A DNA stretch of 64,000 nucleotides from Clostridia bacterium (GTDB lineage: Bacteria; Bacillota; Clostridia; UMGS1883; UMGS1540). The notes below the pieces were generated by a model. The model did no database searches. It saw only the letters and a list, made by a program, of their open reading frames with translations, and was not told the DNA's origin. Shown one piece after another: positions 16,991-63,789 of this stretch. The translations under genes and the position numbers were made by a program. The first letter of the stretch is position 1. Each line of letters starts with the position of its first letter. The DNA is taken from positions 17,281-81,280 of the forward strand of contig JAZSDN010000003.1 in NCBI GenBank assembly GCA_045531205.1, in the 5' to 3' direction.

Positions 16991-17042
16991 TGCGTTTGAA
17001 GAGTATTATTTAATAAAAAACAGTCATAAAGCGGTGATTTAT

Positions 17043-17351: not shown

Positions 17352-17375
17352 AAGATTAAAAAAGTAGGTAGTATT

Positions 17376-19873
<2,498 letters not shown>

Positions 19874-19884
19874 GAGGTAGTGTA

Positions 19885-20472: not shown

Positions 20473-20497
20473 TTTTCGGAAAGGAAGGTTAGGGCGT

Positions 20498-21761: not shown

Positions 21762-21772
21762 GAGGTGTTATT

Positions 21773-24912: not shown

Positions 24913-24917
24913 TATAA

Positions 24918-35014: not shown

Positions 35015-35557
35015 ATGAAAGATAATAAGTACAAAGGAACACAGACAGAAAAAAATCTTGCAGCAGCTTTTGCGGGCGAATCACAGGCGAGAAATAAATA
35101 CACATATTTTGCTTCAAAAGCAAAAAAAGAAGGCTTTGAACAGATTGCAGCCCTCTTCTTAAAAACAGCCGATAACGAAAAAGAACATGCAAAAATCTGG
35201 CTTAAAGAATTAAACGGAATAAGCGATACAGCAGAAAATCTTGTTGATGCCGCAAACGGCGAAAATTATGAATGGACAGATATGTACGCAGGCTTTGCAG
35301 AAACAGCCGAAAAGGAAGGCTTTATAGAGCTTGCTGCAAAATTCCGTATGGTAGCAGCTATCGAAAAAGAACATGAAGAACGCTATCGTGCACTTTTAAA
35401 GAATGTTGAAACTGCACAGGTATTCGAAAAAAGCGAAGTTAAAGTGTGGGAATGCCGTAACTGCGGTCATATTATGGTTGGAACAAAAGCACCTGAAAAA
35501 TGCCCTGTTTGCGACCATCCTCAGAGCTACTTTGAATTAAATTGCAAAAATTATTAA
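35015..35557 (+). CDS. rbr: Rubrerythrin
   Basis: Ferritin-like diiron domain (ExxH repeats) plus a C-terminal rubredoxin-like CRNCGH...CPVCDHP. Confidence 0.9.
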
Positions 35558-35560
35558 AAA

Positions 35561-35594
35561 CAATTTGGTCAGGCTTTTTAAGCCTGACCAAATT
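35561..35594. other. 14-bp perfect hairpin without a 3' U tract on the + strand
   Basis: AATTTGGTCAGGCT / AGCCTGACCAAATT. A-run on the 5' side only. Confidence 0.5.
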
Positions 35595-35616
35595 ACTATG
35601 CTATAAGGAGAAAAAT

Positions 35617-37473
35617 ATGAACAGTTATCTCAATGCTTTTATAGGAGAAATAAATGCTGAGTTTTCGAAAAAGCATAATCAGGCTCTTACAAAAAGGGAA
35701 ATGCCGCAAACAACACCCGCCATTGCCGAAGCGGTTGATTATATATGCGAGCTTTTGCAGAGTGTGGGCTTTAAGCCAGAACGTATTGACTTTCCATCCG
35801 ACGGAAAAACCTCATATCAGGATAAAATAATGCCTATATGCTGGGATGTAAAGAGAGCTAAACTCACAGTAATGTCCGAGTGGGAAGGGGAAAGAGTAAT
35901 TGCTGATTACGAAAAAGAACCCTTTTCAATAATAAGATATTCAACCGAAACACCAAAAGAAGGTCTTACAGCACCCCTCGTTACATGGGATGATATGATA
36001 GCAGGGAAAAGCGTAAAAGATGCCTTTGTATTGCTTCCGCAAGGAATGTTTCCAACAGATAAAGCCCTCGTTCCCATTTTAAATAATGGCGGAATAGGAA
36101 TAGTCAGCGGAACCATAAGTTCAAGCGTTGAAAGACCTGATTCACTGCATTGGGGAAATAACTGTACAGAAACAAATTCCTGGCATGTAAATGCCGACGA
36201 AAGACCTTTTTTGGCATACAGTATAACACCAAGAACTCTTGAAAAGCTTGAGAATGCATATAAAAAAGGAGAAATCATATTAAAAGCAGAAAGTGACGGA
36301 CACCGCTTCGAAGGAACAATGCCCGCAGTAACAACACTTTTAAAAGGAGAAAGCGAAAAAGAATTCTGGGTGCTTGCCCATACAGCAGAGCCTCTTGAAG
36401 ACGACAATTCGGCGGGCGTTATTTGTTGTATACAGTCTTTAATGGCAATAAAAAAAGCTTTGGCAGAAGGAAAAATACCTTCTCTTAAATATTCAATACG
36501 CTTGCTTTTTGCACCCGAAATGTATGGCTTTGCAGCCTTTGCAGAACATTTTGGAGGACAACTTCATAACCGTTGTATAGGTGCTTTGAACGTTGACGGA
36601 ATCCCCGTAAACGAGGAAACTGATACAATGAAAATTATGTTTGCACCTGCAGCCGTTCCTTTTTACGGAAATATACTTTTTGAAGGAATGTGGGACGAAT
36701 ACAGAAGAACAGTTAAAAAAACACCTTTCTTCACCTCCTGGAGTGACCATTGGGGAGATGACTGCATTCTGTCCGATTCATCTGTAGGGCTTCCGACTCT
36801 TATGCCCGAATACGACAATAAATATTCCTGGCATAATTCAGAACAATGCGTAGACGGTTGTATAGATTACGATAAATTTGCAAGAGTCTGTGCAGTTTAT
36901 ACAGCATACATAGCCTCTGTTGCAGCTTATGACGGCAAAATACTCGAAAAATTCTTGCCAATGGCAGTAAGTTATGCATCGGCAAGAATAGCGGAACTTG
37001 CTCAAAAAGCACCCGAAAGAAAAGGAATTGACGCAAAAGCAAGAATAAATCACAGAAAAATTTTAGAACAAAATAACATCAAATCCTTTAAAGATGCAGG
37101 TGTCAGCGAAGAAGCAATAAACAAAGCCTGCAGTATGCTTGATGCTTTCGTAAACGGAATAACACCTGTTCCCACAGAAGAAAAAACAGAACCTACACCC
37201 GTATTTGATTCAATGGAAAACATAATCCCCAAAAGGACTTCCATAGGTGTTCCGCACGATTTTGCAAGAGTACCATTAGAGCGAAGATGGCATCCTATTA
37301 ACGAGAATATTTTGAACAGAGTATTCTCTTCAATGGACGGAAAAAGAAACCTCAAAGATTTGATTATCGAAGCAGAATGGGAAGCCCGCACAGCATTTAG
37401 TGAAGCCCAGCTTACAGACCTTATCGAAACTTTAAAGTTTATGGATGAATTTAAATATATAAAGCTTAACTGA
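35617..37473 (+). CDS. M28/aminopeptidase-fold-like protein (DUF4910-like), function unknown
   Basis: Start moved to the ATG at 35617 (AAGGAGA RBS) because the longer ORF would include the hairpin. The AHTAEPLEDDNSAGV...LLFAPEMYG pattern recalls aminopeptidase-like DUF4910/DUF2172 proteins. Confidence 0.45.
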   Translation: MNSYLNAFIGEINAEFSKKHNQALTKREMPQTTPAIAEAVDYICELLQSVGFKPERIDFPSDGKTSYQDKIMPICWDVKRAKLTVMSEWEGERVIADYEKEPFSIIRYSTETPKEGLTAPLVTWDDMIAGKSVKDAFVLLPQGMFPTDKALVPILNNGGIGIVSGTISSSVERPDSLHWGNNCTETNSWHVNADERPFLAYSITPRTLEKLENAYKKGEIILKAESDGHRFEGTMPAVTTLLKGESEKEFWVLAHTAEPLEDDNSAGVICCIQSLMAIKKALAEGKIPSLKYSIRLLFAPEMYGFAAFAEHFGGQLHNRCIGALNVDGIPVNEETDTMKIMFAPAAVPFYGNILFEGMWDEYRRTVKKTPFFTSWSDHWGDDCILSDSSVGLPTLMPEYDNKYSWHNSEQCVDGCIDYDKFARVCAVYTAYIASVAAYDGKILEKFLPMAVSYASARIAELAQKAPERKGIDAKARINHRKILEQNNIKSFKDAGVSEEAINKACSMLDAFVNGITPVPTEEKTEPTPVFDSMENIIPKRTSIGVPHDFARVPLERRWHPINENILNRVFSSMDGKRNLKDLIIEAEWEARTAFSEAQLTDLIETLKFMDEFKYIKLN

Positions 37474-38238: not shown

Positions 38239-38949
38239 ATGGGCAGCTTTCAAATCAGGTGTGCAAACCTCACGGTACAATTAAATACCGAATATGAGTA
38301 TGCCAAAAAAGCATGCTCTAAGTATATTGTTTCAGGCTTAAAACCTGACTTTGAGCTTACCCCTTCCAAAAAAGTGATTCAACAAACGGCAGATTTCCTT
38401 AAAACAGAATCGGTAGAATATATAGAATTTATGTCACTTTTCCGTATCTTTGCAAGAGAGGTTTTAAAACATAATGCAATAGTTCTGCATTCTGTAGCCT
38501 TGGCACTTGATGATGAAGGATATGTTTTTTCGGCACCTTCAGGAGTTGGAAAAACCACGCACGCAGCATTATGGAAAAAAGCTTTTGGTGAAAGATGCTC
38601 CATAATAAACGGAGATAAACCACTTATAACCTTTTCGGATAACAAATTTTATATAAGCGGAACACCATGGTGCGGAAAAGAAAGACTTTCAGAAAACCGC
38701 AGTGTACCATTAAAAAGCGTTTGTTTTATCGAAAGGGCAGAAAAAAATTCTATTTCTAAAATTGAAACAGGCGAGGTTATTAAAAGATTATTTAATCAGC
38801 TTGCAATTCCTATGGCAGGAGAGCCAACAATGCCGCTATTTTTATCATTTGCCGATAAAATGGTAAAAAACCTGCCTTTTTATCTTTTAAAATGTAATAA
38901 GGAAGAGGAAGCGGCACATATAGCATACAAAGGTTTAAGCGAGGAGTAA
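38239..38949 (+). CDS. HPr kinase C-terminal-domain-like P-loop protein (putative peptide/protein kinase)
   Basis: P-loop APSGVGKTTHAALW (nt 38539-38559) followed by IINGDKP. This resembles the HprK-like proteins that accompany PqqD in peptide-modification cassettes. Confidence 0.55.
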   Translation: MGSFQIRCANLTVQLNTEYEYAKKACSKYIVSGLKPDFELTPSKKVIQQTADFLKTESVEYIEFMSLFRIFAREVLKHNAIVLHSVALALDDEGYVFSAPSGVGKTTHAALWKKAFGERCSIINGDKPLITFSDNKFYISGTPWCGKERLSENRSVPLKSVCFIERAEKNSISKIETGEVIKRLFNQLAIPMAGEPTMPLFLSFADKMVKNLPFYLLKCNKEEEAAHIAYKGLSEE

Positions 38950-38952
38950 TTT

Positions 38953-39216
38953 ATGAAACTGAAACAGGATTTAACTATACATGATATGGGTGACGAATTT
39001 GTAGTTATTTCGTCAAACCCCGAAAGTTTCAGCGGTATGATGAAACTTAATAAAACAGGAGCATTTATTTTTGAAAAATTACAGGAAAACCTTTCAAAGG
39101 AAGAAATAGTAAAAAAACTTCAGGAAAAATATGAAGTAGAAGAAAAAACAGCAGCTTCTGATTTAGAAGATATTTTAAAAATTTTTGAACAGTCAGGCTT
39201 GATGTGTAATGAATAA
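38953..39216 (+). CDS. PqqD family protein (RiPP recognition element-like)
   Basis: 87 aa. Pattern ...EFVVIS...MMKLNKTGAFIFEKL...SKEEIVKKLQEKYEV...AASDLEDIL fits the PqqD winged-helix family. Confidence 0.7.
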   Translation: MKLKQDLTIHDMGDEFVVISSNPESFSGMMKLNKTGAFIFEKLQENLSKEEIVKKLQEKYEVEEKTAASDLEDILKIFEQSGLMCNE

Positions 39217-39640
39217 TGACCCTATGAAAACCATGCTCTTGATAAAAAAAGAGCTTGAAATATCCCCTGGCGGAATAAGTATGAGTCCCTTTTTAAAAGA
39301 AGGGCGGGACAAAGTAATAATAAAAGAATCGCAAGATTTAAAGCTTTATGATATAGCACTTTATAAAGTACATAATGAGTATATTCTTCACAGAATAATA
39401 GGCTTTGAAGGGAATACGTTAGTAATAAGCGGAGATAACGCACGCCTTATCGAGAAAAAAGAAAAAGAAGAAATAATAGGTGTTGTTACAGAAATCATAC
39501 GCCGAAAAAGAAAAATAAATCCACACTCGCTTTTGTGTGAATTATATTGTTTTTTATGGTATAAAACAGGGATAAAGAAAATAAAAATATTTGCACGCAG
39601 AGTAAAAAGAAAACTAGGCAGAATTTTTGCCGAAAGGTAA
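39209..39640 (+). CDS. S26/S24-type serine peptidase, Ser/His (SipW/ER-like) variant
   Basis: GISMSPFL (Ser nucleophile), YDIALYK, ILHRIIG (His where bacterial SPase I has Lys) and SGDNA. No N-terminal TM. Basic amphipathic C-terminus. Confidence 0.55.
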   Translation: MNNDPMKTMLLIKKELEISPGGISMSPFLKEGRDKVIIKESQDLKLYDIALYKVHNEYILHRIIGFEGNTLVISGDNARLIEKKEKEEIIGVVTEIIRRKRKINPHSLLCELYCFLWYKTGIKKIKIFARRVKRKLGRIFAER

Positions 39641-39677
39641 GTGAAAAACACTGAATAACAAAAAAACATTACTTTGG

Positions 39678-41327
39678 ATGTTAAAAAAATCAAAAAGTCA
39701 GCAAGGATTAATATTTGTGCTGGCTCTTTTAAATATTATTGTTTCCGCATCGTATGTATTACCGGCACTGCTGTCAAAAGAGCTTATAAATATAGCAGTA
39801 GGTGCAAAAAGCTTTGAATCGGTGCAGGGTGATATAATAAAATACGGGCTTTTTTTGCTTTGTGTTATAGTTACACAGATAATACTTGCAATATTAGCAT
39901 CTCACCTTTCTGCAATGATATCAGGCAGACTTGAAATGGAACTTCGTAAAAGTTTTTTTGATAATATAACGCAAAAAAATTTCTCGGATATTACAAAAAA
40001 ACATTCGGGAGAAATTTTAAACCGTTTCACAAGCGATATTGATATAGTTGTACAAGGGATAACAGGCTTTTTGCCAAGAACACTGTCTATGGCAACAAAA
40101 ATAATAGCAGGTCTTTTGGTTATTGCTTCGTTCAGCAAAAAGTTTGCACTTTTAATTATAGCAGTCGGTCTTGCAATGCTTTTAATAGCTGCATTTTTCA
40201 AAACCTTTTACAAAAAGCTTCATAAAAAGGTTCAAAGTGCATCGGGAACAATGCGTGGATTTGTGCAGGAATGTACCGAAAATCTTATAGTTGTAAAATC
40301 CTTTTCAAATCGAAAACTGCTTCTTGTAAAGCTTATGGAATATATGCGTAAAATTTATAAACTCAAGATGTTTCGTAATTTTGTAAGCAACTTTGCAGGC
40401 GGCGGAGTAACCTTTATTTTCACACTCGGTTATTATGGAACATTGTGTTATTGTTGCTTCCTTCTTGCCGACGGAAAAATGGATTACGGTACACTTATGG
40501 CATTTTTGCAGATTATTTCGCAAATACGCTCACCCTTTGTAAATGCATCGGGACTTGTTACCCAGTTTTACAGTGCCCAAGCCTCGGCCGAACGTCTTAT
40601 GGAGTTTGAGTACCTTGCAGATGAAGAAACCGACGATAACTTTGAAACAGAAAAAGTTTATAACGCTATGCAAAGCATAAAAGCCGAAAATCTTTCCTTT
40701 AAATACGGAAAAAATAATGTTATAGAAAATTCCAACTTCGAGATAAAAAAAGGCACTATGACAGCAATAACAGGTCTTTCAGGCACAGGTAAAAGTACAC
40801 TCTTCAAACTGCTTTTAGGGCTTTATAAAACAAGTGGAGGAAATCTTTGTTTTAAATTAGAAAACGGAGATGTGGATATTTCTTCAAAAACAAGACAAAT
40901 GTTTGCCTATGTTCCTCAAGGAAATCTTTTGATATCAGGAACAGTTGCAGAAAACATAAAATTTGCAAAAGAAAACATCAGCGATGAAGAAATGTATTCA
41001 GCGGCAAAAACTGCGTGCATATATGACTTTATAAAAACTCTGCCCGATGGATTTAATACATATATAAGCGAAAGGGGAGCAGGCCTTTCCGAAGGGCAGA
41101 TACAAAGAATTTCGGTAGCACGTGCACTTTGCAGTAACGCACCAATTCTTTTGCTTGATGAATGTACATCCGCACTTGACAGCGAAACTGAAGAACAAAT
41201 GCTTCAGAATATAGCATCACTCAAAACAAAAACAGTGCTCTTTATTTCACATAAAAATGCAGCATTGTCAGTGTGTGACTCGCATATAGATATAAGCAAC
41301 AAAACCTTTAAAAAGATTACAAATTAA
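39678..41327 (+). CDS. ABC exporter, fused permease/ATPase (no C39 peptidase domain)
   Basis: Six TM segments, then Walker A GLSGTGKST, signature LSEGQ and Walker B ILLLDE. Confidence 0.9.
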   Translation: MLKKSKSQQGLIFVLALLNIIVSASYVLPALLSKELINIAVGAKSFESVQGDIIKYGLFLLCVIVTQIILAILASHLSAMISGRLEMELRKSFFDNITQKNFSDITKKHSGEILNRFTSDIDIVVQGITGFLPRTLSMATKIIAGLLVIASFSKKFALLIIAVGLAMLLIAAFFKTFYKKLHKKVQSASGTMRGFVQECTENLIVVKSFSNRKLLLVKLMEYMRKIYKLKMFRNFVSNFAGGGVTFIFTLGYYGTLCYCCFLLADGKMDYGTLMAFLQIISQIRSPFVNASGLVTQFYSAQASAERLMEFEYLADEETDDNFETEKVYNAMQSIKAENLSFKYGKNNVIENSNFEIKKGTMTAITGLSGTGKSTLFKLLLGLYKTSGGNLCFKLENGDVDISSKTRQMFAYVPQGNLLISGTVAENIKFAKENISDEEMYSAAKTACIYDFIKTLPDGFNTYISERGAGLSEGQIQRISVARALCSNAPILLLDECTSALDSETEEQMLQNIASLKTKTVLFISHKNAALSVCDSHIDISNKTFKKITN

Positions 41328-52723: not shown

Positions 52724-53440
52724 CTATTTATTCAGCCTTTTCAAAATAATTCGCTTTGCAGCTCTTTCAAACTCGTCATCAAGTGGGTCAAAGACGGGTA
52801 CATTTTCATATTTTTTATCAATGGCAGTACGAATCATTTCGTCAGCGACAGAAGGATTTTTAGCTAAAAAAGGCCCATGCATATATGTGCATAAAAGATT
52901 CTTGTAACGTGCACCTTCTGTTTTGTCTTCTCCATTATTACCAAAACCTTTTATAACCGAAGACAGGGGAGAAATACCTTTTAAAAATGTTCTGCCAAAA
53001 TGATTTTCAAAACCTACACATATTTCGTTATCAATTTTAACCGAAATGTCACCTGTAAAGGGTTTTCCTGCTTCTTCTGTATAAACAGGGATAATTTTGC
53101 ATCCGTCAACCTGATGTCCGCTTTCTGTAAAGAAATATTCGCCAAGGCATTGAAAACCAGTTCCAATAGCTAACATAACGCCTTCATCTTCAATATATTC
53201 CTTTAAATATTTTATATTCTTCTTCAAATCGTCAAGAGCAGTTAAAACCTTTTCGCCTTTAGCACCGCCCAATATTATAATATCATATTTTGAAGGACTG
53301 AAATAATCACCGGGGTTAAACGAGGTAATATTAGTTTTTATACCTCTTGATTCAGCTCTGAATTTAAGTATAGCAGCATTTCCTGAATCTGCGTGCATAT
53401 TAAGAAGAGAAGGATAAAATACACAAATATTAAGTTCCAT
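52724..53440 (-). CDS. gatD: GatD-like CobQ-type glutamine amidotransferase (lipid II isoglutaminyl synthase partner of MurT)
   Basis: Overall collinear with GatD (GFENHFGRT, YKNLLCTYMHGPFLAKNP). Located directly downstream of murT. Confidence 0.75.
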   Translation of the reverse strand: MELNICVFYPSLLNMHADSGNAAILKFRAESRGIKTNITSFNPGDYFSPSKYDIIILGGAKGEKVLTALDDLKKNIKYLKEYIEDEGVMLAIGTGFQCLGEYFFTESGHQVDGCKIIPVYTEEAGKPFTGDISVKIDNEICVGFENHFGRTFLKGISPLSSVIKGFGNNGEDKTEGARYKNLLCTYMHGPFLAKNPSVADEMIRTAIDKKYENVPVFDPLDDEFERAAKRIILKRLNK

Positions 53441-53454: not shown

Positions 53455-54732
53455 TTAATATTTTTTCCTACGTAAAAATTTACGGAAGTTTTGCATTCCC
53501 GAATATGTAGTAAAAAGATATATCCTGTCGTGACAATGCATTTTAATATCGTAAAGCAAAGCTTCATAATCTGCACACATAAAGAAAGCAGATGTATTAA
53601 GCCCCGCTGTTTTAAGTCTGACTGCCATATCATAACGGCGGTTTCCTGCAATAAGAATGTTATTGTAATTCATTTCTTTTGCAGCCTCATAGCGTACATT
53701 ATAAATCCACGAAACATCAATTCCGTCTTTTTCGTCGTCGTTTAAAATAAATGCAAGGTTTGAAGGCTCTCTGTCAGGGATAACAGAATGTATCGATTCG
53801 TTTGCCCCTGCAGCATTTTTAACAGGCATCATAACAACTTCAACACCGTCAACTATAATAGTTTGGGTGCCGTCAATGCTTCTTTCAAGACCTGATAATG
53901 CTTCTTCAATGCTGTGCTTTGAAACACCAAGCTTTTTTGCACACGCAGCAGCACAAAGAGCGTTGTAAATATTATATATACCTGAAAGGGGGAGAGAAAC
54001 CTGCATACCGTCATTAAAACAAATTCTCGAAAAATTGTGAGTAATTTCAAATATCTTGCTTATGTAAACATCAAGAGTGGGACGTTTTATACCGCAAACA
54101 GAACAAGCGTAAGAAAAATCTTCGCCCGATACAATTTCTGCCTGACACATAGGACAGCAAAGATTTTCGCTTTTAGAAAATCCTGAAGGGATTTCCTTTA
54201 TACCATAATATATCTTTTCATAAGAGGGTAAAAAGTCCCAAAAAACAGTAGTATCACCGTTTAAAATAAGGGTTGAATTTTCAGAATGTCTGTAAGCTTC
54301 GGCAAGAAGCTCTTTTGTTTTGTCAGGATTTTCATAAGTATCAGTGATATCAGAATATAAATTTGTAACAGCAATAATTTCGGGCGAAACATTTTCAAGC
54401 AAACTTTTTAAAGCTTCCGAATCTGCCGAAAAAACAGCTATACTGCATTTGTAGTTTTCTGCTAAAAAAGCTGTTACAGTTTCCTTTGTGTTTAAGGAAG
54501 CTTTTGCAACACAAGCCTTTACACCGTCGCAGTATAAAATGCTTTTAAGAATTTCAGAGGTAGTGCTTTTCCCGTTAGTACCTTCAATTAAAACAATCTT
54601 AAATTTTTCGCAAAGAAGGTTAAAAGCCGAAGGGTAAAGAACAAGCAAAACCTTTCCAATTTCATCAAAGCCTACACCCAATAACCGTGCAATTTTAATA
54701 AATAACGAAAAAATCATAAATAAAATATTCAT
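53455..54732 (-). CDS. murT: MurT, Mur-ligase family lipid II isoglutaminyl synthase subunit
   Basis: P-loop GTNGKSTT, Cys4 ribbon CPMCQ...CSVCG, and a C-terminal DUF1727-like region. Confidence 0.85.
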   Translation of the reverse strand: MNILFMIFSLFIKIARLLGVGFDEIGKVLLVLYPSAFNLLCEKFKIVLIEGTNGKSTTSEILKSILYCDGVKACVAKASLNTKETVTAFLAENYKCSIAVFSADSEALKSLLENVSPEIIAVTNLYSDITDTYENPDKTKELLAEAYRHSENSTLILNGDTTVFWDFLPSYEKIYYGIKEIPSGFSKSENLCCPMCQAEIVSGEDFSYACSVCGIKRPTLDVYISKIFEITHNFSRICFNDGMQVSLPLSGIYNIYNALCAAACAKKLGVSKHSIEEALSGLERSIDGTQTIIVDGVEVVMMPVKNAAGANESIHSVIPDREPSNLAFILNDDEKDGIDVSWIYNVRYEAAKEMNYNNILIAGNRRYDMAVRLKTAGLNTSAFFMCADYEALLYDIKMHCHDRIYLFTTYSGMQNFRKFLRRKKY

Positions 54733-55526
54733 TAGTCAAGCTCCTTGTGAGAGAGTTCTACAAGCTCGGATGCTGAAATTTCTGCATCCATATCAGAACA
54801 TTTTTTAATATACATTAAATATTCAATATTTCCCTTAGGTCCCTTTACGGGAGAAAAATCAGCACCTAAAACCGAAAAACCGTTTTCTTTTGCAAAAGAA
54901 AATACACGTTCAATAACTTCTATATGAACAAGCGGGTCTCTTACAACCCCATTTTTCCCAACCTTTTCTCTGCCTGCCTCAAATTGCGGTTTTATAAGAC
55001 AAACGGCTTCGCCATTGTCCTTTAAAAGATTTTTTAAAACAGGCAAAACCAGAGAAAGAGAAATAAAAGAAACATCAATAGAAGCAAAGTCCAAAGCCTC
55101 GTCAATGTTTTCTGGCGTCACAAATCTTATGTTTGTACGCTCCATATTAACAACTCTTTCATCTATGCGTAAGCTCCATGCAAGCTGCCCATAACCCACA
55201 TCAACTGCATAAACTTTCTTTGCACCGTTCTGGAGCATACAGTCAGTAAATCCGCCTGTTGAAGCACCAATGTCCATACAAATACATCCGTCAAGTGTAA
55301 TGGGGAATTGTGCCATAGCCTTTTCAAGCTTTAACCCACCACGGCTTACATAGTTAAGAGTGCTTCCGCGAACCTCAATAACATCGTCTTCCGATACCTG
55401 CATACCTGCCTTGTCAGCCTTCTGGTCATTTACATATACAATGCCTGACATTATAATAGCACTGGCTTTGTCTCTGCCGCTTACCAAACCGTGCTCGGTC
55501 AAATATTTATCAAGCCTTATCTTCAT
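54732..55526 (-). CDS. tlyA: TlyA family rRNA 2'-O-methyltransferase
   Basis: Start at MKIRLDKYL (GGAGG RBS). S4 domain plus FtsJ-like SAM MTase (DIGASTGGFTD). Confidence 0.85.
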   Translation of the reverse strand: MKIRLDKYLTEHGLVSGRDKASAIIMSGIVYVNDQKADKAGMQVSEDDVIEVRGSTLNYVSRGGLKLEKAMAQFPITLDGCICMDIGASTGGFTDCMLQNGAKKVYAVDVGYGQLAWSLRIDERVVNMERTNIRFVTPENIDEALDFASIDVSFISLSLVLPVLKNLLKDNGEAVCLIKPQFEAGREKVGKNGVVRDPLVHIEVIERVFSFAKENGFSVLGADFSPVKGPKGNIEYLMYIKKCSDMDAEISASELVELSHKELD

Positions 55527-57324
55527 TTTGTAACCTCCGTAGGATATCTTCTGCAATACTTTCACCATCAAGCCTGTAAGCTTTTGTAAGCTCATTTATT
55601 GAACCTTGCGGTATAAATTCATCAGGGAATGCTTTTATAATATCAGCCCCAAGCTTTTCTCCTAAAGAACCAAATTCCATATTATCTTCAACAGTTACAA
55701 GCATTCCTGTCTTTTTAACAGATTTTAAAATACTGTCTTTATCAAAAGGCTTAACAGTAGACATATTTATAACTTCAGCTGATACACCTTTATCGTCTAA
55801 AATGTCAGAAGCTAAAAGTGCCTCATAAACCATCCTTCCGTAAGAAACAATGGTAACATCATTTCCTTCTTTTAAAATTTCAGCCTTTGCAAAATTGAAA
55901 TGAGTATCAATATGGGGAAGAGGCCCTTTAGGATAACGAATAGCCACGGGTCCTTCAATACTGTTCACAGCAAATTTCAGCATCAAATCAAGCTCTTCGT
56001 TACAAGAGGGCGACAGAATAGTCATATTTGGTATGTGTGATAAAAACGAAATATCAAATACACCCTGATGGGTTTCGCCGTCATTACCCGCAATCCCCGC
56101 ATGGTCTATTGCAAAAATAACATGATAATTTGCTAGTGCAATATCCTCAATCAAAGAATCATACGCTCTTTGTAAAAAGGTCGAGTATATCGAAACAACA
56201 GGAACAAATCCTTCGTGTGCAAGCCCTGCCGCCATAGTAACAGCGTGTTCTTCTGCAATACCTGCATCCGAAAATCTTTCAGGGAACTTTTTAATAAATT
56301 CGGAAAGTCCGCACGAAACAGGCATAGCGGGAGAAATTGAATATATTTTTTTATTTTCATCTGCAAGCTTTGTTAAAGTTTCACCAAACTGGGCAGTCAT
56401 AGTCTTTCCGCTATCAGTTTTTCCAGAAGAAGAAACCGCATGGAAATTAGAAGGCTCTGCCTCAGCTTTTTCGTAACCCTTACCTTTTTTTGTGCAAATG
56501 TGTACAATGCAAGGTTTTTCATATTTTTTGGCCTGCGAAAAAGCAGTACATAAAGCCTCTAAATCGTGCCCGTCAAAAGGACCAAGATATTTGCAACCAA
56601 GCTTTTCAAAATAAATTCCGGGCACAAAAATAAACTTCATAAGCTTCGAAAGCTTGCTTGTAACCTTATACAAAAAAGAACCTATTAAAGGTATCTTCGA
56701 AAAAACTTTTTTAGTGCGTCCTTTGGCATCAAAGTAAATAGGATTAGTTCTTATTCTATTTAAATATCTTGAAAATGCACCTGTAGATTTTTGTATTGAC
56801 ATCTGGTTATCGTTTAAAACAATAATAACCTTTTTCCCACAATGTGAGAGATGATTCAACGCTTCCTGATTTATTCCGTTTGCAAAAGAAGAATCACCAA
56901 TAACAGGAATAATTTCAAAATTCTCTTCGTTTATATCTTTGGCAAGAGCAAGCCCTAAAGCAAGCGAAAGGGAAGTGCCCGCATGCCCCGCATTAAAAGT
57001 ATCATATTCACTTTCTGATATTTTGGGAAAACCGCTTAATCCGCCCTTTTGACGTAATGAATCAAACCCGTCACGTCTTCCGCAAATAATTTTATGTACA
57101 TAGCTTTGATGGCCAACATCCCATATAATTTTGTCGTAAGGGGCATTAAAAGAGTAATGCAAAGCTAAAGTAAGCTCCACAACCCCGAGATTAGAAGCCA
57201 AATGCCCGCCGGACTTGTTTACTTTTTCAATAAGAAAACTTCTTATTTCACCGGCAAGAACTTCAAGCTCATCAAAATTCAGTTTTTTTAAATCATCAGG
57301 AGAACTGATATTATTAAGAAGCAT
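55510..57324 (-). CDS. dxs: 1-deoxy-D-xylulose-5-phosphate synthase
   Basis: TPP motif GDSSFANG...NDN. GHxG/HQSY region. Typical length. Confidence 0.95.
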   Translation of the reverse strand: MLLNNISSPDDLKKLNFDELEVLAGEIRSFLIEKVNKSGGHLASNLGVVELTLALHYSFNAPYDKIIWDVGHQSYVHKIICGRRDGFDSLRQKGGLSGFPKISESEYDTFNAGHAGTSLSLALGLALAKDINEENFEIIPVIGDSSFANGINQEALNHLSHCGKKVIIVLNDNQMSIQKSTGAFSRYLNRIRTNPIYFDAKGRTKKVFSKIPLIGSFLYKVTSKLSKLMKFIFVPGIYFEKLGCKYLGPFDGHDLEALCTAFSQAKKYEKPCIVHICTKKGKGYEKAEAEPSNFHAVSSSGKTDSGKTMTAQFGETLTKLADENKKIYSISPAMPVSCGLSEFIKKFPERFSDAGIAEEHAVTMAAGLAHEGFVPVVSIYSTFLQRAYDSLIEDIALANYHVIFAIDHAGIAGNDGETHQGVFDISFLSHIPNMTILSPSCNEELDLMLKFAVNSIEGPVAIRYPKGPLPHIDTHFNFAKAEILKEGNDVTIVSYGRMVYEALLASDILDDKGVSAEVINMSTVKPFDKDSILKSVKKTGMLVTVEDNMEFGSLGEKLGADIIKAFPDEFIPQGSINELTKAYRLDGESIAEDILRRLQNEDKA

Positions 57325-57908
57325 TATTTATCCCTCTTTGAAAAAAACGCTAAAATACGTCCAATGAAAAAAACAATGGAATTACAGTTTTTAAAAGCAA
57401 AGGTTTTGGCAGTTGCCTTACCACCAATGGTTAAAGAGGCAGTGATGGCGGTAATTATTAAGGTAGTTATAAGCGAGTCCCACGAAAATTTTAAAGTGAG
57501 CGAAGCAACAATAACAGCACCCGCAGCACCACTTACAATACCGCAGATGTCACCGATTACGTCGTTACAAAAGCTCGAAACCTTTTCGGCATTACGCAAA
57601 AGCCATACCGATTGACGTGCCCCTGCAATTTTACTTGAGGCCATAGCATGGAAAGGTGACTCAACCGAAGAAGCAACAGCAATCCCCAAAACGTCAAAGA
57701 AAATACCTATGCATATAATAAAAAATAAAACCAAAAAGGCAATACCTATAGGTAAATCCGACAACAAAATATTAGAAACAAAAGTAATTAAAATCGAAAG
57801 AAAAAACGCAATAAAAGTAACAAACAAAACCCAGGGCAAGCTGAAGTTTTTACCCTGAATATGAGAAGTTTTTACTTTAATTTTGCGTTTTTGATTATCC
57901 TTATTCAT
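57324..57908 (-). CDS. oapA: OapA-like four-TM membrane protein (OLE-associated protein A)
   Basis: 194 aa with a basic N-terminus and 4 TM helices. Located immediately downstream of the OLE-like RNA, with its stop overlapping the dxs start. This is the reported OLE-oapA-dxs-tlyA synteny. Confidence 0.65.
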   Translation of the reverse strand: MNKDNQKRKIKVKTSHIQGKNFSLPWVLFVTFIAFFLSILITFVSNILLSDLPIGIAFLVLFFIICIGIFFDVLGIAVASSVESPFHAMASSKIAGARQSVWLLRNAEKVSSFCNDVIGDICGIVSGAAGAVIVASLTLKFSWDSLITTLIITAITASLTIGGKATAKTFAFKNCNSIVFFIGRILAFFSKRDK

Positions 57909-57937
57909 AATAATATCCTAAAGCATATAAAAAAGTA

Positions 57938-58526
57938 GGTGGTAGAACACGAAGTTAAGTTTGCGGCATAGGTCCGTGTTGGATTTCCCGCATCAGTACC
58001 ACGCGTCGCCGTCGTGGCGGTTCCCCTTTAAACCAAAGCTGAGCCGTGGCTCAAACCGGATTACCACTAAGTCCACACTGCAATCCTTCGTATCCTTCCC
58101 TAGAAAAAGGGACAGCCTAGGAGATTTCCTCAACAGTCACGCCAAATCTTTAGCCTCTTTTGCAGACATAATTTCATCAAGCGATAGCAAAACTTGTGTT
58201 GGCCGACACAAAGAATTGCCCAAGCAAGAATCCCTTATGGCCACTCAAGGCAGGCTACTCTGCCCACAGCACCAAAAGGCACCGCAAAGCAGGTTTAATC
58301 CCAAGCCGTACACCAGCCTTTATAAAGCAAAATGCACGAAAATGGGTCTCCACGGAAAGAGGGTTAAAGTCGTATGCCGTTACAACCCACCCGCAAACCT
58401 TAACTCCCAGCACCAGCCCCTGACTGGCATCAAAAGCCGGCACAAGGAACTTCATCGATGTGCCCGTCGGCGGATTTTTAGGCCCGCCCTGGGATTCGGC
58501 AGAATTGACTAGGATACTGCACCACC
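57938..58526 (-). ncRNA. ole: OLE (ornate, large, extremophilic) RNA candidate
   Basis: A stretch of about 590 nt that is visibly far more GC-rich than its flanks. Only low-complexity R/P/S-rich ORFs cross it. The terminal GGTGGT (58526-58521) and ACCACC (57943-57938) can form a closing helix. A near-consensus promoter sits 7 nt upstream. The synteny with oapA-dxs-tlyA matches that described for OLE. Confidence 0.75.
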
Positions 58527-58532
58527 GTAAAT

Positions 58533-58561
58533 ATTATAACATAGTAAAATAGATTTGTAAA
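58533..58561 (-). promoter_or_regulatory. Candidate sigma-A promoter of the OLE RNA operon
   Basis: Minus strand reads TTTACA, 17-nt spacer, TATAAT. Confidence 0.5.
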
Positions 58562-58573
58562 GTGTAAAAAAGG

Positions 58574-59299
58574 TTAACCTTCGTAATATAAAGGCAATCT
58601 TCTTTTGTGAGCGGTACGATTGTGTGCTGAAGATATTTTTTCAGCAGAAATCGAATTTACTTCATTTCCTTCTATAAAATCCTCAATTTCAGAATAAAGA
58701 ACACCCATTTCAGCTTCATCGGTCTGCCCTTCAAAAAGGCCTGCCGACGGAGCTTTTTTAATAATATTTTCGGGAGCACCCAAAAATTCCAAAAACTCGT
58801 ATACTTCACTTACAGTAAGGTCGGCTATAGGATTAAAATCACAAGCACCGTCGCCCCACTTAGTAAAGTATCCCATAAAAATCTCACATTTATTCCCGGT
58901 TCCCGCAACAACGGCATTGCGTGTTTGCGCAATAGCATAAAGCGTAGTCATGCGAAGACGCGGATTTATATTCATAGAAGAGGGAAGGGATAACTCAATT
59001 GGAGAAATTGCATCAACTATAGTATTTTTAACTCCGCTTAAATCAACGGTTATGTTTTCTATTCCGAATTTTTCGCAGGTAGCAACAGCATCCTGCATAT
59101 CTTCCCCAAAATTGCGTTTTGAGTTGCAGGGCATCATAACCGATAACACATTATCACAGGCTTTTTTACATAAAATGCCAACTAAAGTGCAATCCTTACC
59201 ACCGCTGTTTCCAAATACAATTCCGTCAGCATGTGAATTTTTAAGAACCTCTTTTATAAAAGAAACTCTTTTTTCAAGTTCTAAAGCATAATTTCTCAT
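58574..59299 (-). CDS. nadE: NH3-dependent NAD+ synthetase
   Basis: Start at MRNYALELE. PP-loop GNSGGKDCT. Confidence 0.85.
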   Translation of the reverse strand: MRNYALELEKRVSFIKEVLKNSHADGIVFGNSGGKDCTLVGILCKKACDNVLSVMMPCNSKRNFGEDMQDAVATCEKFGIENITVDLSGVKNTIVDAISPIELSLPSSMNINPRLRMTTLYAIAQTRNAVVAGTGNKCEIFMGYFTKWGDGACDFNPIADLTVSEVYEFLEFLGAPENIIKKAPSAGLFEGQTDEAEMGVLYSEIEDFIEGNEVNSISAEKISSAHNRTAHKRRLPLYYEG

Positions 59300-59400
59300 A
59301 TATAAACCTCGTAAAATGTTTTTTAAAATTATATTACTATTTATATAATATGTCAAATGTTTTTATATAAAAATTATTTGACATAATTTAATAAATGATA

Positions 59401-59465: not shown

Positions 59466-59762
59466 ATGAACACAATTTCACTTGAAGCTGCAAACGAGAT
59501 AAGCGAATTAACTGTTTTCGGTTTTGGGTTTGGGCTTGTTTTTGTAGGTCTTGTGTGTCTTATAGCAATATGCTATATCATGGGTTCAGTTTGCAAAGCA
59601 CTTGTAAAAGAAGAACCCAAAAAGGTACAGACACCTGCTAAAACACCGGCAACAACAATTCCAAATAAGCAGGAACTTGCAGCAGCAATTTCTGCAGTAA
59701 TAGCAGAAGAACTTGGTACCGATATAAAGGGTATCAGAATACATTCAATTAAAAAAGTGTGA
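59466..59762 (+). CDS. oadG: Na+-translocating decarboxylase gamma subunit (OadG family)
   Basis: 98 aa with a single N-terminal TM (FGFGFGLVFVGLVCL) and a Pro/Ala/Lys-rich linker. Confidence 0.7.
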   Translation: MNTISLEAANEISELTVFGFGFGLVFVGLVCLIAICYIMGSVCKALVKEEPKKVQTPAKTPATTIPNKQELAAAISAVIAEELGTDIKGIRIHSIKKV

Positions 59763-59781
59763 GAGGAAAGGAAAGAGAAGA

Positions 59782-60144
59782 ATGAAAAAGTATAAAGTAA
59801 ATGTAAATGGAACAGCATATGAAATAGAAATTGAAGAATTAACAGGCGCAGCACAGGCTCCCGTAGCAGCTCCCGCACCTGCAAAAGAAGAAGCACCCGC
59901 ACCTGCACCCGCAGCAGCTCCCGCAGGCGAAGGACAGCAGGTAACAGCTCCAATGCCCGGCACAATTTTAGCAGTAAATGTGCAGGCTGGCGATACAATT
60001 AAAAAAGGCCAGGTTCTTATGGTTTTGGAAGCTATGAAAATGGAAAACGAAATTATGGCAGGCTGCGACGGTACAGTTGAATCAGTTTGCGTTACAAAAG
60101 GCACATCAGTAGTATCAGGAACAGTACTTTGCACAATAGCTTAA
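59782..60144 (+). CDS. Biotin carboxyl carrier protein (stand-alone biotinyl domain)
   Basis: Ala/Pro linker, then a biotinyl domain with EAMKMENEI. Confidence 0.85.
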
Positions 60145-60163
60145 ACTTAAAGGAGTAATAAAA

Positions 60164-61354
60164 ATGTCAACAATATTAAATTTTCTTGGTGACACAGGCT
60201 TTGCTCTTTTGGCAGAAAACTATCTTTGCCTTATAATGATAGCTATTTCTCTTGTACTTATGTACCTTGCCATTGTAAAAAAATTCGAGCCATTGCTCTT
60301 GTTACCAATAGCATTCGGTATGCTTTTAACAAACTTACCCGGTGCAGGATTATATCATCCTGAAATATTTGGCGGCGGAACTGTTAACTGGGCAGCCTTT
60401 CCTCACGGTCTGGTTAACGGGACAGAAGTTACAGCAGGGCTTTTAGACTATCTTTACCTCGGTGTAAAGCTCGGTATATATCCTTGCCTTATCTTTATAG
60501 GCGTTGGTGCTATGACAGACTTTGGTCCCCTCATTGCAAACCCCAAAAGCTTGCTTTTAGGTGCTGCAGCACAGGCAGGTATCTTTATAGCATTCTTTGG
60601 CGCAGTAGCACTCGGCTTCAATCCCTTTGAAGCTTCTTCAATTGGTATCATCGGCGGCGCAGATGGTCCTACGGCTATATATGTAACATCTCGTCTTGCT
60701 CCCGACCTTTTAGGTCCCATAGCAGTAGCTGCATATTCATATATGGCACTCGTTCCCGTTATTCAGCCTCCTATTATGAAGGCTCTTACAACCAAAAAGG
60801 AACGTTCTATTGTAATGAAACAGTTAAGACCTGTTTCAAAAACAGAAAAAATTGTATTCCCCATAGTTGTTACAATATTTGTAGCACTTTTAGTTCCTTC
60901 AGCAGCTCCCTTAATAGGCTCACTTATGCTTGGTAACCTTCTTACAGAAAGCGGAGTTTGCGAAAGACTTTCAAAAACTGTACAGAACGAGCTTATGAAT
61001 ATCGTAACAGTATTCTTAGGCATTTCTGTTGGAGCAACAGCAACAGCTGAAATTTTCCTTCAGTGGAAAACTCTCGGTATAATAGTAATGGGTGTAATTG
61101 CATTTGCAGGCGGTACAGCCGGCGGTGTATTACTTGCTAAGTTTATGAACCTCTTTACAAAGAATAAAATCAACCCCCTCATCGGTTCGGCAGGCGTTTC
61201 TGCTGTACCTATGGCTGCAAGAGTATCACAGACTGTTGGACAGAAAGAAAATCCCTCAAACTTCTTACTTATGCATGCAATGGGCCCCAACGTTTCCGGC
61301 GTTATAGGTTCTGCCATAGCAGCGGGTGCGCTCCTTACATTATTCTTGAAGTAA
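60164..61354 (+). CDS. oadB: Na+-translocating decarboxylase beta subunit
   Basis: 396-aa polytopic protein typical of the OadB/GcdB/MmdB family ([21 protein letters not shown]). Confidence 0.9.
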
Positions 61355-61371
61355 GGGAGAAAGGATAAATT

Positions 61372-62769
61372 ATGGCTAATAAATTATATATTACAGATAC
61401 AATTTTACGTGACGCTCATCAGTCGCAGGCGGCTACAAGAATGAAAACAGAAGACATGCTTCCTGTTTGCGAAATTCTTGACAATATGGGCTATTGGTCA
61501 CTTGAATGCTGGGGCGGTGCAACATTCGATTCTTGTATGAGATTTTTGAATGAAGACCCCTGGGAACGCCTTCGTACATTAAAAAAGGCAATGCCTAAAA
61601 CAAAATTACAGATGCTTTTGCGTGGACAGAACCTTTTGGGATACAAACACTACGCAGATGATGTTGTTGAAGCTTTCTGTAAAAAATCCATCGAAAATGG
61701 TATTGATGTTGTAAGAGTATTCGATGCATTAAATGATACACGAAACATAGCCGCAGCAATGAAGTACATTAAAGAATACGGTGGAACATGTGAAGCGGCA
61801 ATCAGCTACACAGTAAGTCCTGTGCACGACGAAGATTATTTTGTTCGTCTTGCAGAAAAACTCGAAAAAATGGGTGCAGATGTAATTTGTATAAAGGATA
61901 TGGCAAACCTTTTACTTCCTTACGATGCATATTCTCTCGTAAAGAAATTAAAAGAAAACATAAGCCTTCCTATACATCTTCATACACATAACACAACAGG
62001 TACAGGTGATATGACATACCTTATGGCAGTACAGGCAGGTGTTGATATTGTTGACTGTGCGCTTTCACCCCTCGCAAATGGCACATCACAGCCTTCAACA
62101 GAAGCTTTGGTTGCCTCATTGCAGGGTACCGACAGAGATACAGGTCTTGACCTTGCAAAACTTTCAGAAGCAGCAGCACATTTCCGTACAGTTGCCGCAA
62201 AGTTAAAAGAACAGGGCAGTCTTGATCCCAAGGTATTAAGTGTTGACACAAATACACTTTTATACCAGGTTCCCGGCGGTATGCTTTCAAACCTTATTTC
62301 ACAGCTTAAACAGGCAAATGCTGAAGATAAGTATTATGAAGTATTGGCAGAAGTACCCAGAGTTCGAGAAGATTTCGGATATCCTCCGCTTGTAACACCT
62401 ACAAGCCAGATAGTAGGTTCACAGGCAGTACTCAATGTTTTATCGGGAGAAAGATATAAGATATTCACAAAAGAATCAAAAGGTCTTTTAAAGGGTGAAT
62501 ATGGCGAACTTCCCGGCACAGTAAACGAAGAAGTACGTAAAAAGGCAATAGGCGACGATGAAATAGTAACAGTTAGACCTGCTGACCTTTTACAGCCCGA
62601 ACTCGAAAAATATCGCGAAGAAACAAAAGACATGGCAAAGAGCGAAGAAGACGTTTTAAGCTATGCACTTTTCCCACAGGTTGCACAAAAATTCTTTGAA
62701 ACAAGAGATAAAAAAGAAGCACCTGCAGACGAAAACGCAGTTCGCGAGCTTTATGTAGAACTTATGTAA
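61372..62769 (+). CDS. oadA: Oxaloacetate decarboxylase alpha subunit (carboxyltransferase domain; no fused biotin domain)
   Basis: TDTILRDAHQS and HxH (HLHTHNTTG) of the HMGL-like 5S carboxyltransferase. Confidence 0.85.
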   Translation: MANKLYITDTILRDAHQSQAATRMKTEDMLPVCEILDNMGYWSLECWGGATFDSCMRFLNEDPWERLRTLKKAMPKTKLQMLLRGQNLLGYKHYADDVVEAFCKKSIENGIDVVRVFDALNDTRNIAAAMKYIKEYGGTCEAAISYTVSPVHDEDYFVRLAEKLEKMGADVICIKDMANLLLPYDAYSLVKKLKENISLPIHLHTHNTTGTGDMTYLMAVQAGVDIVDCALSPLANGTSQPSTEALVASLQGTDRDTGLDLAKLSEAAAHFRTVAAKLKEQGSLDPKVLSVDTNTLLYQVPGGMLSNLISQLKQANAEDKYYEVLAEVPRVREDFGYPPLVTPTSQIVGSQAVLNVLSGERYKIFTKESKGLLKGEYGELPGTVNEEVRKKAIGDDEIVTVRPADLLQPELEKYREETKDMAKSEEDVLSYALFPQVAQKFFETRDKKEAPADENAVRELYVELM

Positions 62770-62782
62770 GAACTAAATAATA

Positions 62783-62865
62783 AAACGGGGAGCTCATTTT
62801 ATGGGCTGAGAGGGATTTTAATCCGACCCGCATACCTGATTTGGATAATGCCAACGTAGGAATTT
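62783..62865 (+). promoter_or_regulatory. TPP (THI-box) riboswitch
   Basis: ACGGGGAGC...GGGCTGAGAGGG...ACCCGCATACCTGATTTGGATAATGCCAACGTAGGAA matches the CUGAGA and ACCUGAU..GGAUAAUGCC..AGGAA cores. Confidence 0.85.
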
Positions 62866-62905
62866 AAGCAGTACACCCCTATATGTTGGTGTACTGCTTT
62901 TTTTC
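62866..62905 (+). terminator. Riboswitch expression-platform terminator
   Basis: AAGCAGTACACC / GGTGTACTGCTT stem followed by a run of six Ts (TTTTTT). Confidence 0.8.
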
Positions 62906-62942
62906 TTCTGAAGGCAAAATAGCTTCAGAAAGGAAATTTATA

Positions 62943-63497
62943 ATGAATAAAACAATAACTCAAAAAATAGTAACAACAGCAATAATGTTTGCACTTGCCT
63001 CAGTGCTTTCGCTTATCACAATATTCCGTGCCCCTTATGGTGGAAGTATAACCTTGGTATCAATGTTACCGCTTATAATTATATCAGTAAAATATAAAAC
63101 ATTATGGGGCGTTATGTCTGCTTGTGTTTACGGAGTATTACAAATGTTTATTACAGGCATCCCCGCACCTCCCGTGCAGGATTTTATTTCTTATCTTCTG
63201 GTTGTACTTTTAGATTATATCCTGGCTTTCGGTGTTTTAGGACTTGCAGAAACCTTTGAAAAATTTTATGGTAAGCAAAAAAGATTTTCCCTTGCCCTTT
63301 CAACTGCAACAGTAATATTTTTAAGATTTATATGCCACTTTTTGTCTGGCATAATTATATGGGGAGTTTACGCACCCGAAGGCACAAGTCCCGCGCTTTA
63401 TTCACTTTTGTACAACGGAAGCTATATGCTTTTCGAGCTTATTATTACAACAGTTATTGTTGCAAATATAACACCTCGTATTTTAGGCATAAAATAA
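62943..63497 (+). CDS. thiT: ECF transporter S component for thiamine (ThiT)
   Basis: Start at the ATG at 62943, downstream of the terminator. 184-aa 6-TM protein behind a TPP riboswitch. Confidence 0.8.
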   Translation: MNKTITQKIVTTAIMFALASVLSLITIFRAPYGGSITLVSMLPLIIISVKYKTLWGVMSACVYGVLQMFITGIPAPPVQDFISYLLVVLLDYILAFGVLGLAETFEKFYGKQKRFSLALSTATVIFLRFICHFLSGIIIWGVYAPEGTSPALYSLLYNGSYMLFELIITTVIVANITPRILGIK

Positions 63498-63534: not shown

Positions 63535-63789
63535 TTGAAAGATGTTTTAATATATATATCTTCTCTTATAATACTTATAGGCATTATGTATTTAATGCGA
63601 AAACCTTTTAAATTGCTTGCAAAAGCTTCTTTACGCACTCTTATAGGCTGTGGAGTTCTTTTAGTGCTTAATACCTTTGGTACAACAAGCGGCATTTACA
63701 TAGCAGTAAACTTTATTACGGCTTTTGTTTGCGGTCTGCTCGGCATACCGGGTTTGTGTGTGCTTATTGCCTTGGAACATTTTGTATAA
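63535..63789 (+). CDS. bofA: BofA family pro-sigma-K processing inhibitor
   Basis: 84 aa, 2-3 TM. C-terminal FVCGLLGIPGLCVLIAL is typical. TTG start after GAGGTGAGAGG. Confidence 0.65.
   Translation: MKDVLIYISSLIILIGIMYLMRKPFKLLAKASLRTLIGCGVLLVLNTFGTTSGIYIAVNFITAFVCGLLGIPGLCVLIALEHFV

Follow-up and report, generated by a model that had tools for sequence, protein, structure and literature searches.

An OLE RNA of full length with a truncated P13 hairpin, and its neighbour oapA, in an uncultured Clostridia lineage

Introduction

What occupies the 589 nucleotides (nt) that lie after the stop codon of nadE (58574) and before a 194-codon open reading frame (ORF), which starts at 57908, in a 64,000-nt stretch of contig JAZSDN010000003.1 (here called the window) from a Clostridia bacterium? 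A preliminary description, made from the letters alone, had read the region as a gene for an OLE RNA, placed directly upstream of the gene for its membrane partner OapA. It had pointed to a GC-rich island (57938-58526) with no credible ORF, to termini (GGTGGT and ACCACC) that could close the whole molecule, and to a TTTACA-17-TATAAT promoter 7 nt upstream on the minus strand. It had also noted that a gene for a protein of 194 amino acids (aa) with four transmembrane (TM) helices follows after about 30 nt, and that the stop codon of this gene overlaps the start of dxs, which is in turn followed by tlyA, as in the classical isoprenoid neighbourhood of OLE.

OLE is among the largest conserved bacterial RNAs with a biochemical function that is still to be solved. 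We conclude with high confidence that the minus strand of the window encodes a full-length OLE RNA from 58526 to 57938, and that the adjoining gene codes for its membrane partner OapA. This copy is one more representative of a known family, and it is ordinary apart from the lost tip of its P13 hairpin. Thousands of representatives of the family are already known (PMC11332333).

Results

Identity and structure of the RNA

The whole window was scanned with Rfam 15. The OLE family (RF01071, gathering score 50) matches the minus strand at 58541..57923 with 449.5 bits and E 1.1e-128, and the match is untruncated, spanning positions 1-616 of the 616 in the model. The check that the preliminary description had proposed, a covariance-model search of the minus strand, gives an end-to-end match, and the assignment to OLE stands. 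The Rfam match (57923-58541) is longer than the RNA because the model includes flanking positions; the boundaries first given, 57938 and 58526, mark exactly the two outer strands of helix P1. A better match to another large-RNA family had been named as the finding that would speak for a different identity. In a permissive Rfam rescan of 57700-58800, no rival RNA family scored better than E 0.34.

When the RF01071 structure is transferred onto the sequence, 139 of its 154 pairs are canonical. The stems P1-P15 of OLE are all present, and the architecture, with about 25 helices, is that of the family. The near-invariant blocks comprise about 25% of OLE positions. In 46 other OLEs, 194 columns reach a conservation of at least 90%, and the window RNA matches 186 of them. 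The eight deviating columns are all shared with its closest relative, the OLE of locus L081, from the metagenome-assembled genome (MAG) GCA_045590155.1. The minimum free energy (MFE) of the RNA has a z-score of -3.35, and none of 100 dinucleotide shuffles folds as well.

Comparative evidence comes from 82 fetched loci that encode OapA homologues, in which OLE was sought by nhmmer with the window RNA as the query. An alignment of 49 OLEs drawn from these loci has 87.0% of its cells paired, compared to 41-45% after a shift of the 3' partners by 1-3 columns. Both sides change at 125 of the 154 pairs, and 0 of 500 shuffles reach the observed values. The closing helix P1 is absent from the Rfam structure line and was tested separately. 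It is paired in 95.9% of cases across the 49 OLEs, with changes on both sides at five of the six pairs (for example GGUGGU/ACCACC, GAUGGU/ACCAUC and AUGGC/GCCAU). The proposed closure of the molecule by its termini is supported by their complementarity, by this covariation and by the MFE fold, which pairs GGUGGU with ACCACC.

The OapA protein

The product of the 194-codon gene is OapA, with a predicted, distantly CNNM/CorB-like fold. The gene starts 29 nt after the end of the RNA, close to the spacing first reported, and has an AGGA ribosome-binding site upstream. OLE lies directly upstream of the oapA homologue in 80 of the 82 fetched loci. The search of all assemblies found 6,578 OapA homologues at E <= 1e-10. 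The best match in 185,579 reference genomes is 45-51% identical; MAGs and metagenomes add a single relative with 86% identity and a few with 55-60%. A look-up in public assemblies did not find an exact copy of the window OapA. In 44 aligned homologues there is no variation in D116, in D120 or in the CNDVxGD around them, and the two aspartates are at least 95% conserved in 120 homologues.

The match to Pfam CNNM (PF01595) has 20.4 bits, under the cut-off of 28.4, and NCBIfam gives no match to the protein. Such a sub-threshold CNNM match is the behaviour that has been reported for OapA (PMC11332333). An AlphaFold2 model (pLDDT 80.1, pTM 0.71) has four long predicted membrane helices (24-50, 54-81, 107-141 and 145-173) and a C-terminal helix. 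CNNM transporters fill the first six places among its PDB matches, with MtCorB (7M1T, 7M1U) and CorC (7CFG, 7CFF), at TM-scores up to 0.51 and Foldseek probabilities of 0.63-1.00, at weak E-values of 0.3-1. Of these, 7M1U is the top match that Fernando and Breaker reported for the OapA of Halalkalibacterium (H.) halodurans (PMC11332333). A search of the PDB by sequence did not identify a solved OapA, and gave only weak, TM-biased matches to SemiSWEET proteins. The length of 194 aa leaves no room for CBS or CorC domains. The helices, the DxxxD motif, the likeness to CNNM/CorB proteins and the adjacency to OLE all agree with the identification of the four-TM gene as oapA in the preliminary description.

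Transcription of the locus

The promoter that had been noticed upstream of the RNA holds up well. It is a strong promoter of the sigma-70 type, with a 17-nt spacer and a TG extension, and it agrees with the consensus at 11 of 12 positions. The last base of the -10 box is 7 nt away from G58526, near which transcription is predicted to start. Both hexamers are kept in L081, despite a spacer between the genes that is only 52% identical and contains a 22-nt indel. In 54 of 76 OLE loci, the sequence upstream of P1 has a -10-like hexamer whose end is 3-14 nt away from the helix, compared to 19 of 76 for a control window. A dedicated promoter for a transcript that begins at P1 therefore seems to be common among OLE loci.

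On the minus strand, neither the nadE-ole spacer nor the ole-oapA spacer has a terminator-like site, and a separate promoter for oapA was not found either. A U-run follows directly after P1. Since there is no terminator before oapA, and since the genes overlap or nearly abut, the downstream genes are probably transcribed through the RNA. We infer from the sequence that ole-oapA-dxs-tlyA-murT-gatD form one transcription unit, possibly with read-through from nadE.

The absence of a terminator and of a separate oapA promoter, and the overlap of the downstream genes, would also suit a long structured 5' leader that regulates oapA-dxs in cis, instead of an RNA that accumulates and acts in trans. 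The transcription of the H. halodurans cluster as one polycistronic RNA (PMC12265935) points in the same direction. Nevertheless, we regard a mere leader as improbable. The window RNA belongs, at full length, to a family of RNAs that in model species are highly abundant, bind OapA, OapB and OapC, and are found at the membrane (PMC12265935). The conserved sequence extends over all 589 nt, including dimerization and protein-binding loops that are far from the start codon of oapA. Moreover, the two readings are compatible, because co-transcription does not stop the RNA from acting as a particle.

Composition and coding capacity

The GC-rich island of the preliminary description is real: the G+C content of the RNA is 50%, with a peak of 53.7% at 58200-58499, compared to 37.05% for the whole window. 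This contrast could suggest that the OLE-oapA block was recently imported by horizontal transfer, or that it is a mis-binned or mis-assembled piece, and the rare OLE matches in bins outside Bacillota do look like transfer or assembly errors (PMC11332333). For the present locus, however, such an origin is very unlikely. Only the RNA is GC-rich, whereas the composition of oapA, of dxs and of the flanks is the local one. A structured RNA of an AT-rich genome normally has a raised G+C content. The independent MAG with locus L081, which codes for an OapA that is 86% identical, is syntenic for at least 16 kb on both sides; the two OLE RNAs are 94.4% identical, and the flanking spacers 52% and 59%. 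In addition, the gene context (BofA, SLH, MurT/GatD, and the names of the ValS matches) is that of Bacillota.

The notion that the region codes for a protein, namely the 183-aa product of the plus-strand ORF 57961-58512, hardly deserves credit: the ORF exists and tblastn of its translation matches eight other loci, but these matches fall exactly on OLE genes and reflect nucleotide conservation, the substitutions keep base pairs rather than codons (125 covarying pairs, next to an Rfam E-value of 1e-128), and the three ORFs within the RNA (57961-58512 and 58196-58423 on the plus strand, 58255-58455 on the minus strand) are purely mechanical and overlap on both strands, in line with the earlier judgement that none is credible.

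Dimerization and protein-binding elements

The roles of the RNA elements in this section are carried over from papers on model species, and the window contributes their sequences. The A residues of the L4 loop are invariant in the 49 OLEs. In cryo-EM structures, the A-A dimer bridge B1 forms at this A-rich loop (PMC12286853, PMC12265935). The palindromic GGCC in the terminal loop of P9 acts as a symmetric kissing loop and forms dimer bridge B3 (PMC12286853). A further intermolecular bridge is formed by L5.1 and L6.1 as kissing partners; the k-turn strands are bound by OapC in H. halodurans, and the footprints of OapA have been mapped to the palindromes CUAG and AUCGAU (PMC12286853, PMC12265935 and PMC9723947, jointly for these three roles).

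Most of these elements are kept in the window RNA. In the k-turn strands, AUCGAUGAAG / GGGCACAUCGAUGAAG and CCGUGGAGAC agree with the consensus throughout, and so do the palindromes CUAG in P2 and AUCGAU in P4a. For the k-turn strands J4a/5 and J6/7, which are putative OapC sites, GGGCACAUCGAUGAAGUUCCU and CCGUGGAGACCC match the consensus exactly. The L5.1 loop is an exception. It reads CGCCCAG in 70 of 77 OLEs, and UGCCAG only in the window and in loci L081, L042 and L044; the GCC is kept in the window. The L6.1 loop has an invariant GGCAU, which the window RNA keeps, and the third base of the loop is C in 11 of the 77 OLEs. Covariation of L5.1 and L6.1, which would be evidence for the kissing contact, is not seen among the 77 OLEs: UGCCAG occurs with both AACGGCAU and AAUGGCAU.

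Single changes affect A76, which is invariant in 46 more distant OLEs and is C in the window RNA, and A574, which is replaced by U. Two further changes occur together, in the window as well as in L081. These are C153U and G177A (window positions 58389 and 58365, minus strand) in the internal loop of P6, a region that has been proposed as the bS21 site. Each of the two positions is conserved in at least 96% of 46 comparison OLEs. The joint change would fit the conversion of a C-G to a U-A pair that is not drawn in the Rfam structure line.

Loss of the P13 tip

Full-length OLE RNAs typically carry a primary OapB site, but membership in the family does not depend on it. The site consists of parts of P13: both the GNRA tetraloop and one bulged nucleotide of this hairpin are required (PMC7936274). 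The window P13 has a CACG loop, no GNRA tetraloop and no single-nucleotide bulge, and the primary docking site for OapB is therefore absent. The P13 region measures 25 nt in the window, compared to 31-33 nt in 72 of 77 complete OLEs. Among these 77, lengths of 21-26 nt are found only in the window, in L081 and L082, and in two Anaeromonas species.

The truncation is not unique to the lineage of the window, because L062 and L070 have lost the P13 tip independently. These loci belong to Anaeromonas gelatinilytica and A. frigoriresistens; their P13 regions have 21 and 23 nt, and the GNRA tip is gone. As cultured species, they could serve as tractable models of an OLE without the OapB site.

The P14.1 hairpin, with a GCGA tetraloop and a bulged A, corresponds to the weak secondary OapB site of H. 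halodurans (PMC7936274). We considered whether it compensates for the lost P13 tip and rejected the idea, since the arrangement of a bulge, two base pairs and a GNRA tetraloop is common in OLEs that retain P13. No ORF of the family or size of OapB (SBB/KOW-like, about 100 aa), OapC (L7Ae/YbxF-like) or bS21 was found within the 64-kb window. The small ORFs that were scanned gave NusG_II, DUF1292, FeoA, PqqD, BofA and others. The other uncoded gaps of more than 120 nt in the window measure only 123-335 nt, which leaves next to no uncoded space. One of them, a 276-nt gap after a DUF1292 gene, holds a 6S RNA (8856-9053, plus strand; RF00013, 76.6 bits compared to a gathering score of 46.4), and the mechanical minus-strand ORF 8762-8998 that overlaps this RNA is probably spurious.

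Gene neighbourhood

The coordinates of the features are collected in Table 1. Downstream of oapA, the order of genes is the one first described: the ATG of dxs overlaps the stop codon of oapA by one base (TAATG at 57324), and a tlyA gene (TIGR00478) follows. The longest tlyA ORF overlaps dxs; its true start is probably at about 55526, as in L081 (264 aa). The idea of a classical isoprenoid neighbourhood has to be qualified. It holds for dxs and tlyA, but upstream the locus has nadE, and ispA/xseAB, the usual upstream neighbours of OLE, are absent. An upstream nadE is found only in the window and in L081, and in none of L001-L080 within 6 kb. A downstream murT-gatD pair is present in the window, L081 and L082, and likewise in none of L001-L080 within 6 kb.

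Table 1. Features of the ole-oapA locus, in window coordinates; the roles of RNA elements are by homology
Feature	Position	Strand	Remarks
OLE RNA	57938..58526	-	589 nt, from the P1 5' strand to the P1 3' strand; full-length class
Predicted sigma-70-type promoter of ole	58533..58561	-	-35 TTTACA 58561-58556, -10 TATAAT 58538-58533
P1 5' strand GGUGGU	58521..58526	-	pairs with 57943-57938
P4 hairpin, A-rich loop CCUAAAAAUCC	58469..58488	-	identical to consensus
L5.1 loop UGCCAG	58424..58429	-	1 nt short of the usual CGCCCAG; first position C to U
L6.1 loop AACGGCAU	58374..58381	-	kissing partner of L5.1
Palindromic GGCC, P9 terminal loop (L9.3)	58201..58204	-	UCGGCCAAC in the window, identical to consensus
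Truncated P13 hairpin UGAGC-CACG-GCUCA	58040..58053	-	7-nt deletion relative to the model
P14.1 hairpin	57998..58018	-	GCGA tetraloop 58009-58006, bulged A two base pairs before the tetraloop
P1 3' strand ACCACC	57938..57943	-	followed by UACUUUUUU
oapA	57324..57908	-	194 aa, four TM helices, DVIGD (D116-D120), K/R-rich N-terminus
dxs (1-deoxy-D-xylulose-5-phosphate synthase)	55510..57324	-	TIGR00204, 666 bits
tlyA (rRNA cytidine-2'-O-methyltransferase)	54732..55595	-	longest ORF; TIGR00478, 279 bits
murT (lipid II isoglutaminyl synthase subunit)	53455..54732	-	one-base overlap of its start with the tlyA stop
gatD (glutamine amidotransferase partner of MurT)	52724..53440	-	14 nt after murT; last gene of the run on this strand
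nadE (NAD+ synthase)	58574..59356	-	upstream neighbour of ole on the same strand

Divergent from nadE, and in the same place in L081, there is a four-gene operon for a Na+-translocating decarboxylase (59466-62769, plus strand; OAD gamma, MmdC-like biotin carrier, OAD beta and OadA-like carboxyltransferase). It is followed by a thiamine pyrophosphate (TPP) riboswitch (62776-62879, plus strand; RF00059, 74.6 bits) directly upstream of an ORF for a ThiT/YuaJ-type thiamine transporter (62883-63497; PF09515, 138.6 bits). The longest transporter ORF begins 4 nt after the aptamer, and therefore an internal ATG (MNKTITQ...) is probably the true start; the homologue in L081 has 183 aa. The riboswitch is 5 kb away from dxs, which codes for the TPP-dependent enzyme of the ole operon.

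The host

The best matches of ValS are 71-80% identical, and all those that carry a name (71-76%) are assigned to "Clostridia bacterium". The window also codes for BofA (63535-63789), SLH proteins, a V-type ATPase and MreCD/PBP2. Taken together, ValS, BofA, SLH, MurT/GatD and the V-type ATPase place the host in Bacillota, where OLE hosts, typically anaerobes or extremophiles, are expected. The host is an uncultured Clostridia lineage, and probably spore-forming, to which BofA points. The SLH proteins and the Na+-pumping decarboxylase might hint at Negativicutes, the one class of Bacillota reported without OLE; this assignment was rejected on the basis of the ValS names, BofA and MurT/GatD.

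Two other regions of the plus strand may be mentioned. From 17034 to 25580, ORFs on the same strand have the sizes and order of a V/A-type ATPase operon; the first has a weak V-ATPase G match, and the others are candidates, assigned by eye on the basis of N-terminal sequence. The region 38239-41327 is a possible small cluster for peptide maturation or export, with a 236-aa protein without a Pfam match, a PqqD-like chaperone (PF05402), a 143-aa protein without a match, and an ATP-binding cassette (ABC) exporter with fused TM and ATPase parts. Upstream of it are an SLH protein and a 643-aa protein without a Pfam match (35542-37473).

Discussion

How might the particle work? By analogy with the OLEs of H. 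halodurans and Clostridium, the RNA would fold and homodimerise via the A-rich L4, the L5.1/L6.1 contact and the GGCC loop of P9. The dimer loops of the model systems are all present here, L5.1 in its shortened form. Dimers of OapA would bind the RNA at CUAG in P2 and at AUCGAU in P4a, and would hold it at or across the membrane. The particle may then tune the handling of divalent cations and the tolerance to stress, such as alcohol, cold, Mg2+ and poor carbon sources. The RNA may supply the regulatory role that the cytosolic CBS/CorC domains play in MpfA, an all-protein relative (PMC12265935, PMC11332333). These steps draw on PMC12265935, PMC12286853, PMC7936274, PMC11332333 and PMC9723947.

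Several points weigh against this picture. Expression, the formation of a membrane ribonucleoprotein and protein binding would follow from homology to model species. With an L5.1 loop that lacks 1 nt of the usual length, and with C in place of A76, the geometry of the dimer or the contacts to OapA may differ. The U-run after P1 could terminate a part of the transcripts, and the co-transcription of oapA is deduced from gene arrangement. Finally, the prediction about OapB that is set out below draws on a search of 64 kb of the genome.

The lost P13 tip leads to a prediction that is specific for the lineage. The particle would assemble without OapB at the primary P13 site, and either the genome would lack OapB, or OapB would use only the GCGA tetraloop of P14.1. 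It is conceivable, and we put it forward tentatively, that the lineage of the window, L081 and L082 has an OapB-independent OLE particle, with a full-length domain 1 and an operon link to murT-gatD. If the genome is truly without OapB, then OapB would be dispensable for an OLE of full size, and its loss would be separable from the reduction of P7-P9 that is seen in variant 1 of the family. The murT-gatD link may bear on the published idea that domain 2 of OLE relates to the cell wall; should the OapB-free reading be true, it would be a genomic hint for communication between domain 2 and the cell wall.

Each divergent OLE adds comparative data, and the uncultured Clostridia lineage of the window copy has been sampled sparsely. 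What is new is that an RNA of full length has lost its P13 tip, that L5.1 is shortened, and that the locus is linked to murT-gatD, with nadE as a lineage-specific neighbour upstream; the current picture of OLE is unchanged by this. The locus places ole-oapA in a single same-strand run with dxs, tlyA and murT-gatD. It also shows that the docking hairpin for OapB can go while the rest of the RNA stays at full size, which helps to sort out the core partners. Overall, this is a result at the level of annotation with one testable prediction, an entry in a comparative table and no new category.

Comparison with known systems

The window protein resembles OapA in its length of about 195 aa, the four TM helices with a DxxxD motif in TM3, the basic N-terminus, the CNNM-like fold and the place after ole. 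It differs from reference OapAs in sequence, since even the best homologues in the reference genomes do not exceed 51% identity (45-51%). Among the CNNM-family Mg2+ transporters MpfA, CorB and CorC, it has its best structural matches (7M1T, 7M1U, 7CFG), together with the weak Pfam CNNM match. In contrast to these transporters, OapA has a fourth TM helix and the DxxxD motif, and is devoid of the cytosolic CBS/CorC domains. The occurrence of MpfA is anticorrelated with that of OLE. OapA is thus a distant relative of the CNNM family, and not a member of it (PMC11332333).

The RNA is most similar to the full-length OLEs (RF01071) of H. halodurans and Clostridium acetobutylicum. It shares with them its length, the match to the full model, the stems P1-P15, the lengths of P7-P9, the A-rich L4 loop, the GGCC of P9, the k-turn strands and the palindromes CUAG and AUCGAU, and it is likewise followed directly by oapA, and then by dxs and tlyA. 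Unlike these OLEs, it has a P13 that is 7 nt shorter, a UGCCAG L5.1, the change A76C, and C153U together with G177A. The locus also differs from theirs in having nadE instead of ispA/xseAB, and in the murT-gatD genes that are appended downstream.

OLE variant 1, described by Fernando and Breaker in 2024, is common in the TANB77 clade and has shortened P7, P8 and P9 (PMC11332333). The end of P13 with the OapB site is often lost in variant 1 as in the window RNA, and variant 1 also occurs in uncultured, Clostridia-like gut organisms (PMC11332333). We considered membership in this variant and rejected it, because P7, P8 and P9 of the window RNA, with 47, 33 and 99 nt, do not fall below the medians of 76 other OLEs, which are 44, 31.5 and 98 nt. 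By its sequence, the window RNA has a domain 1 of full length together with a P13 that has lost its tip.

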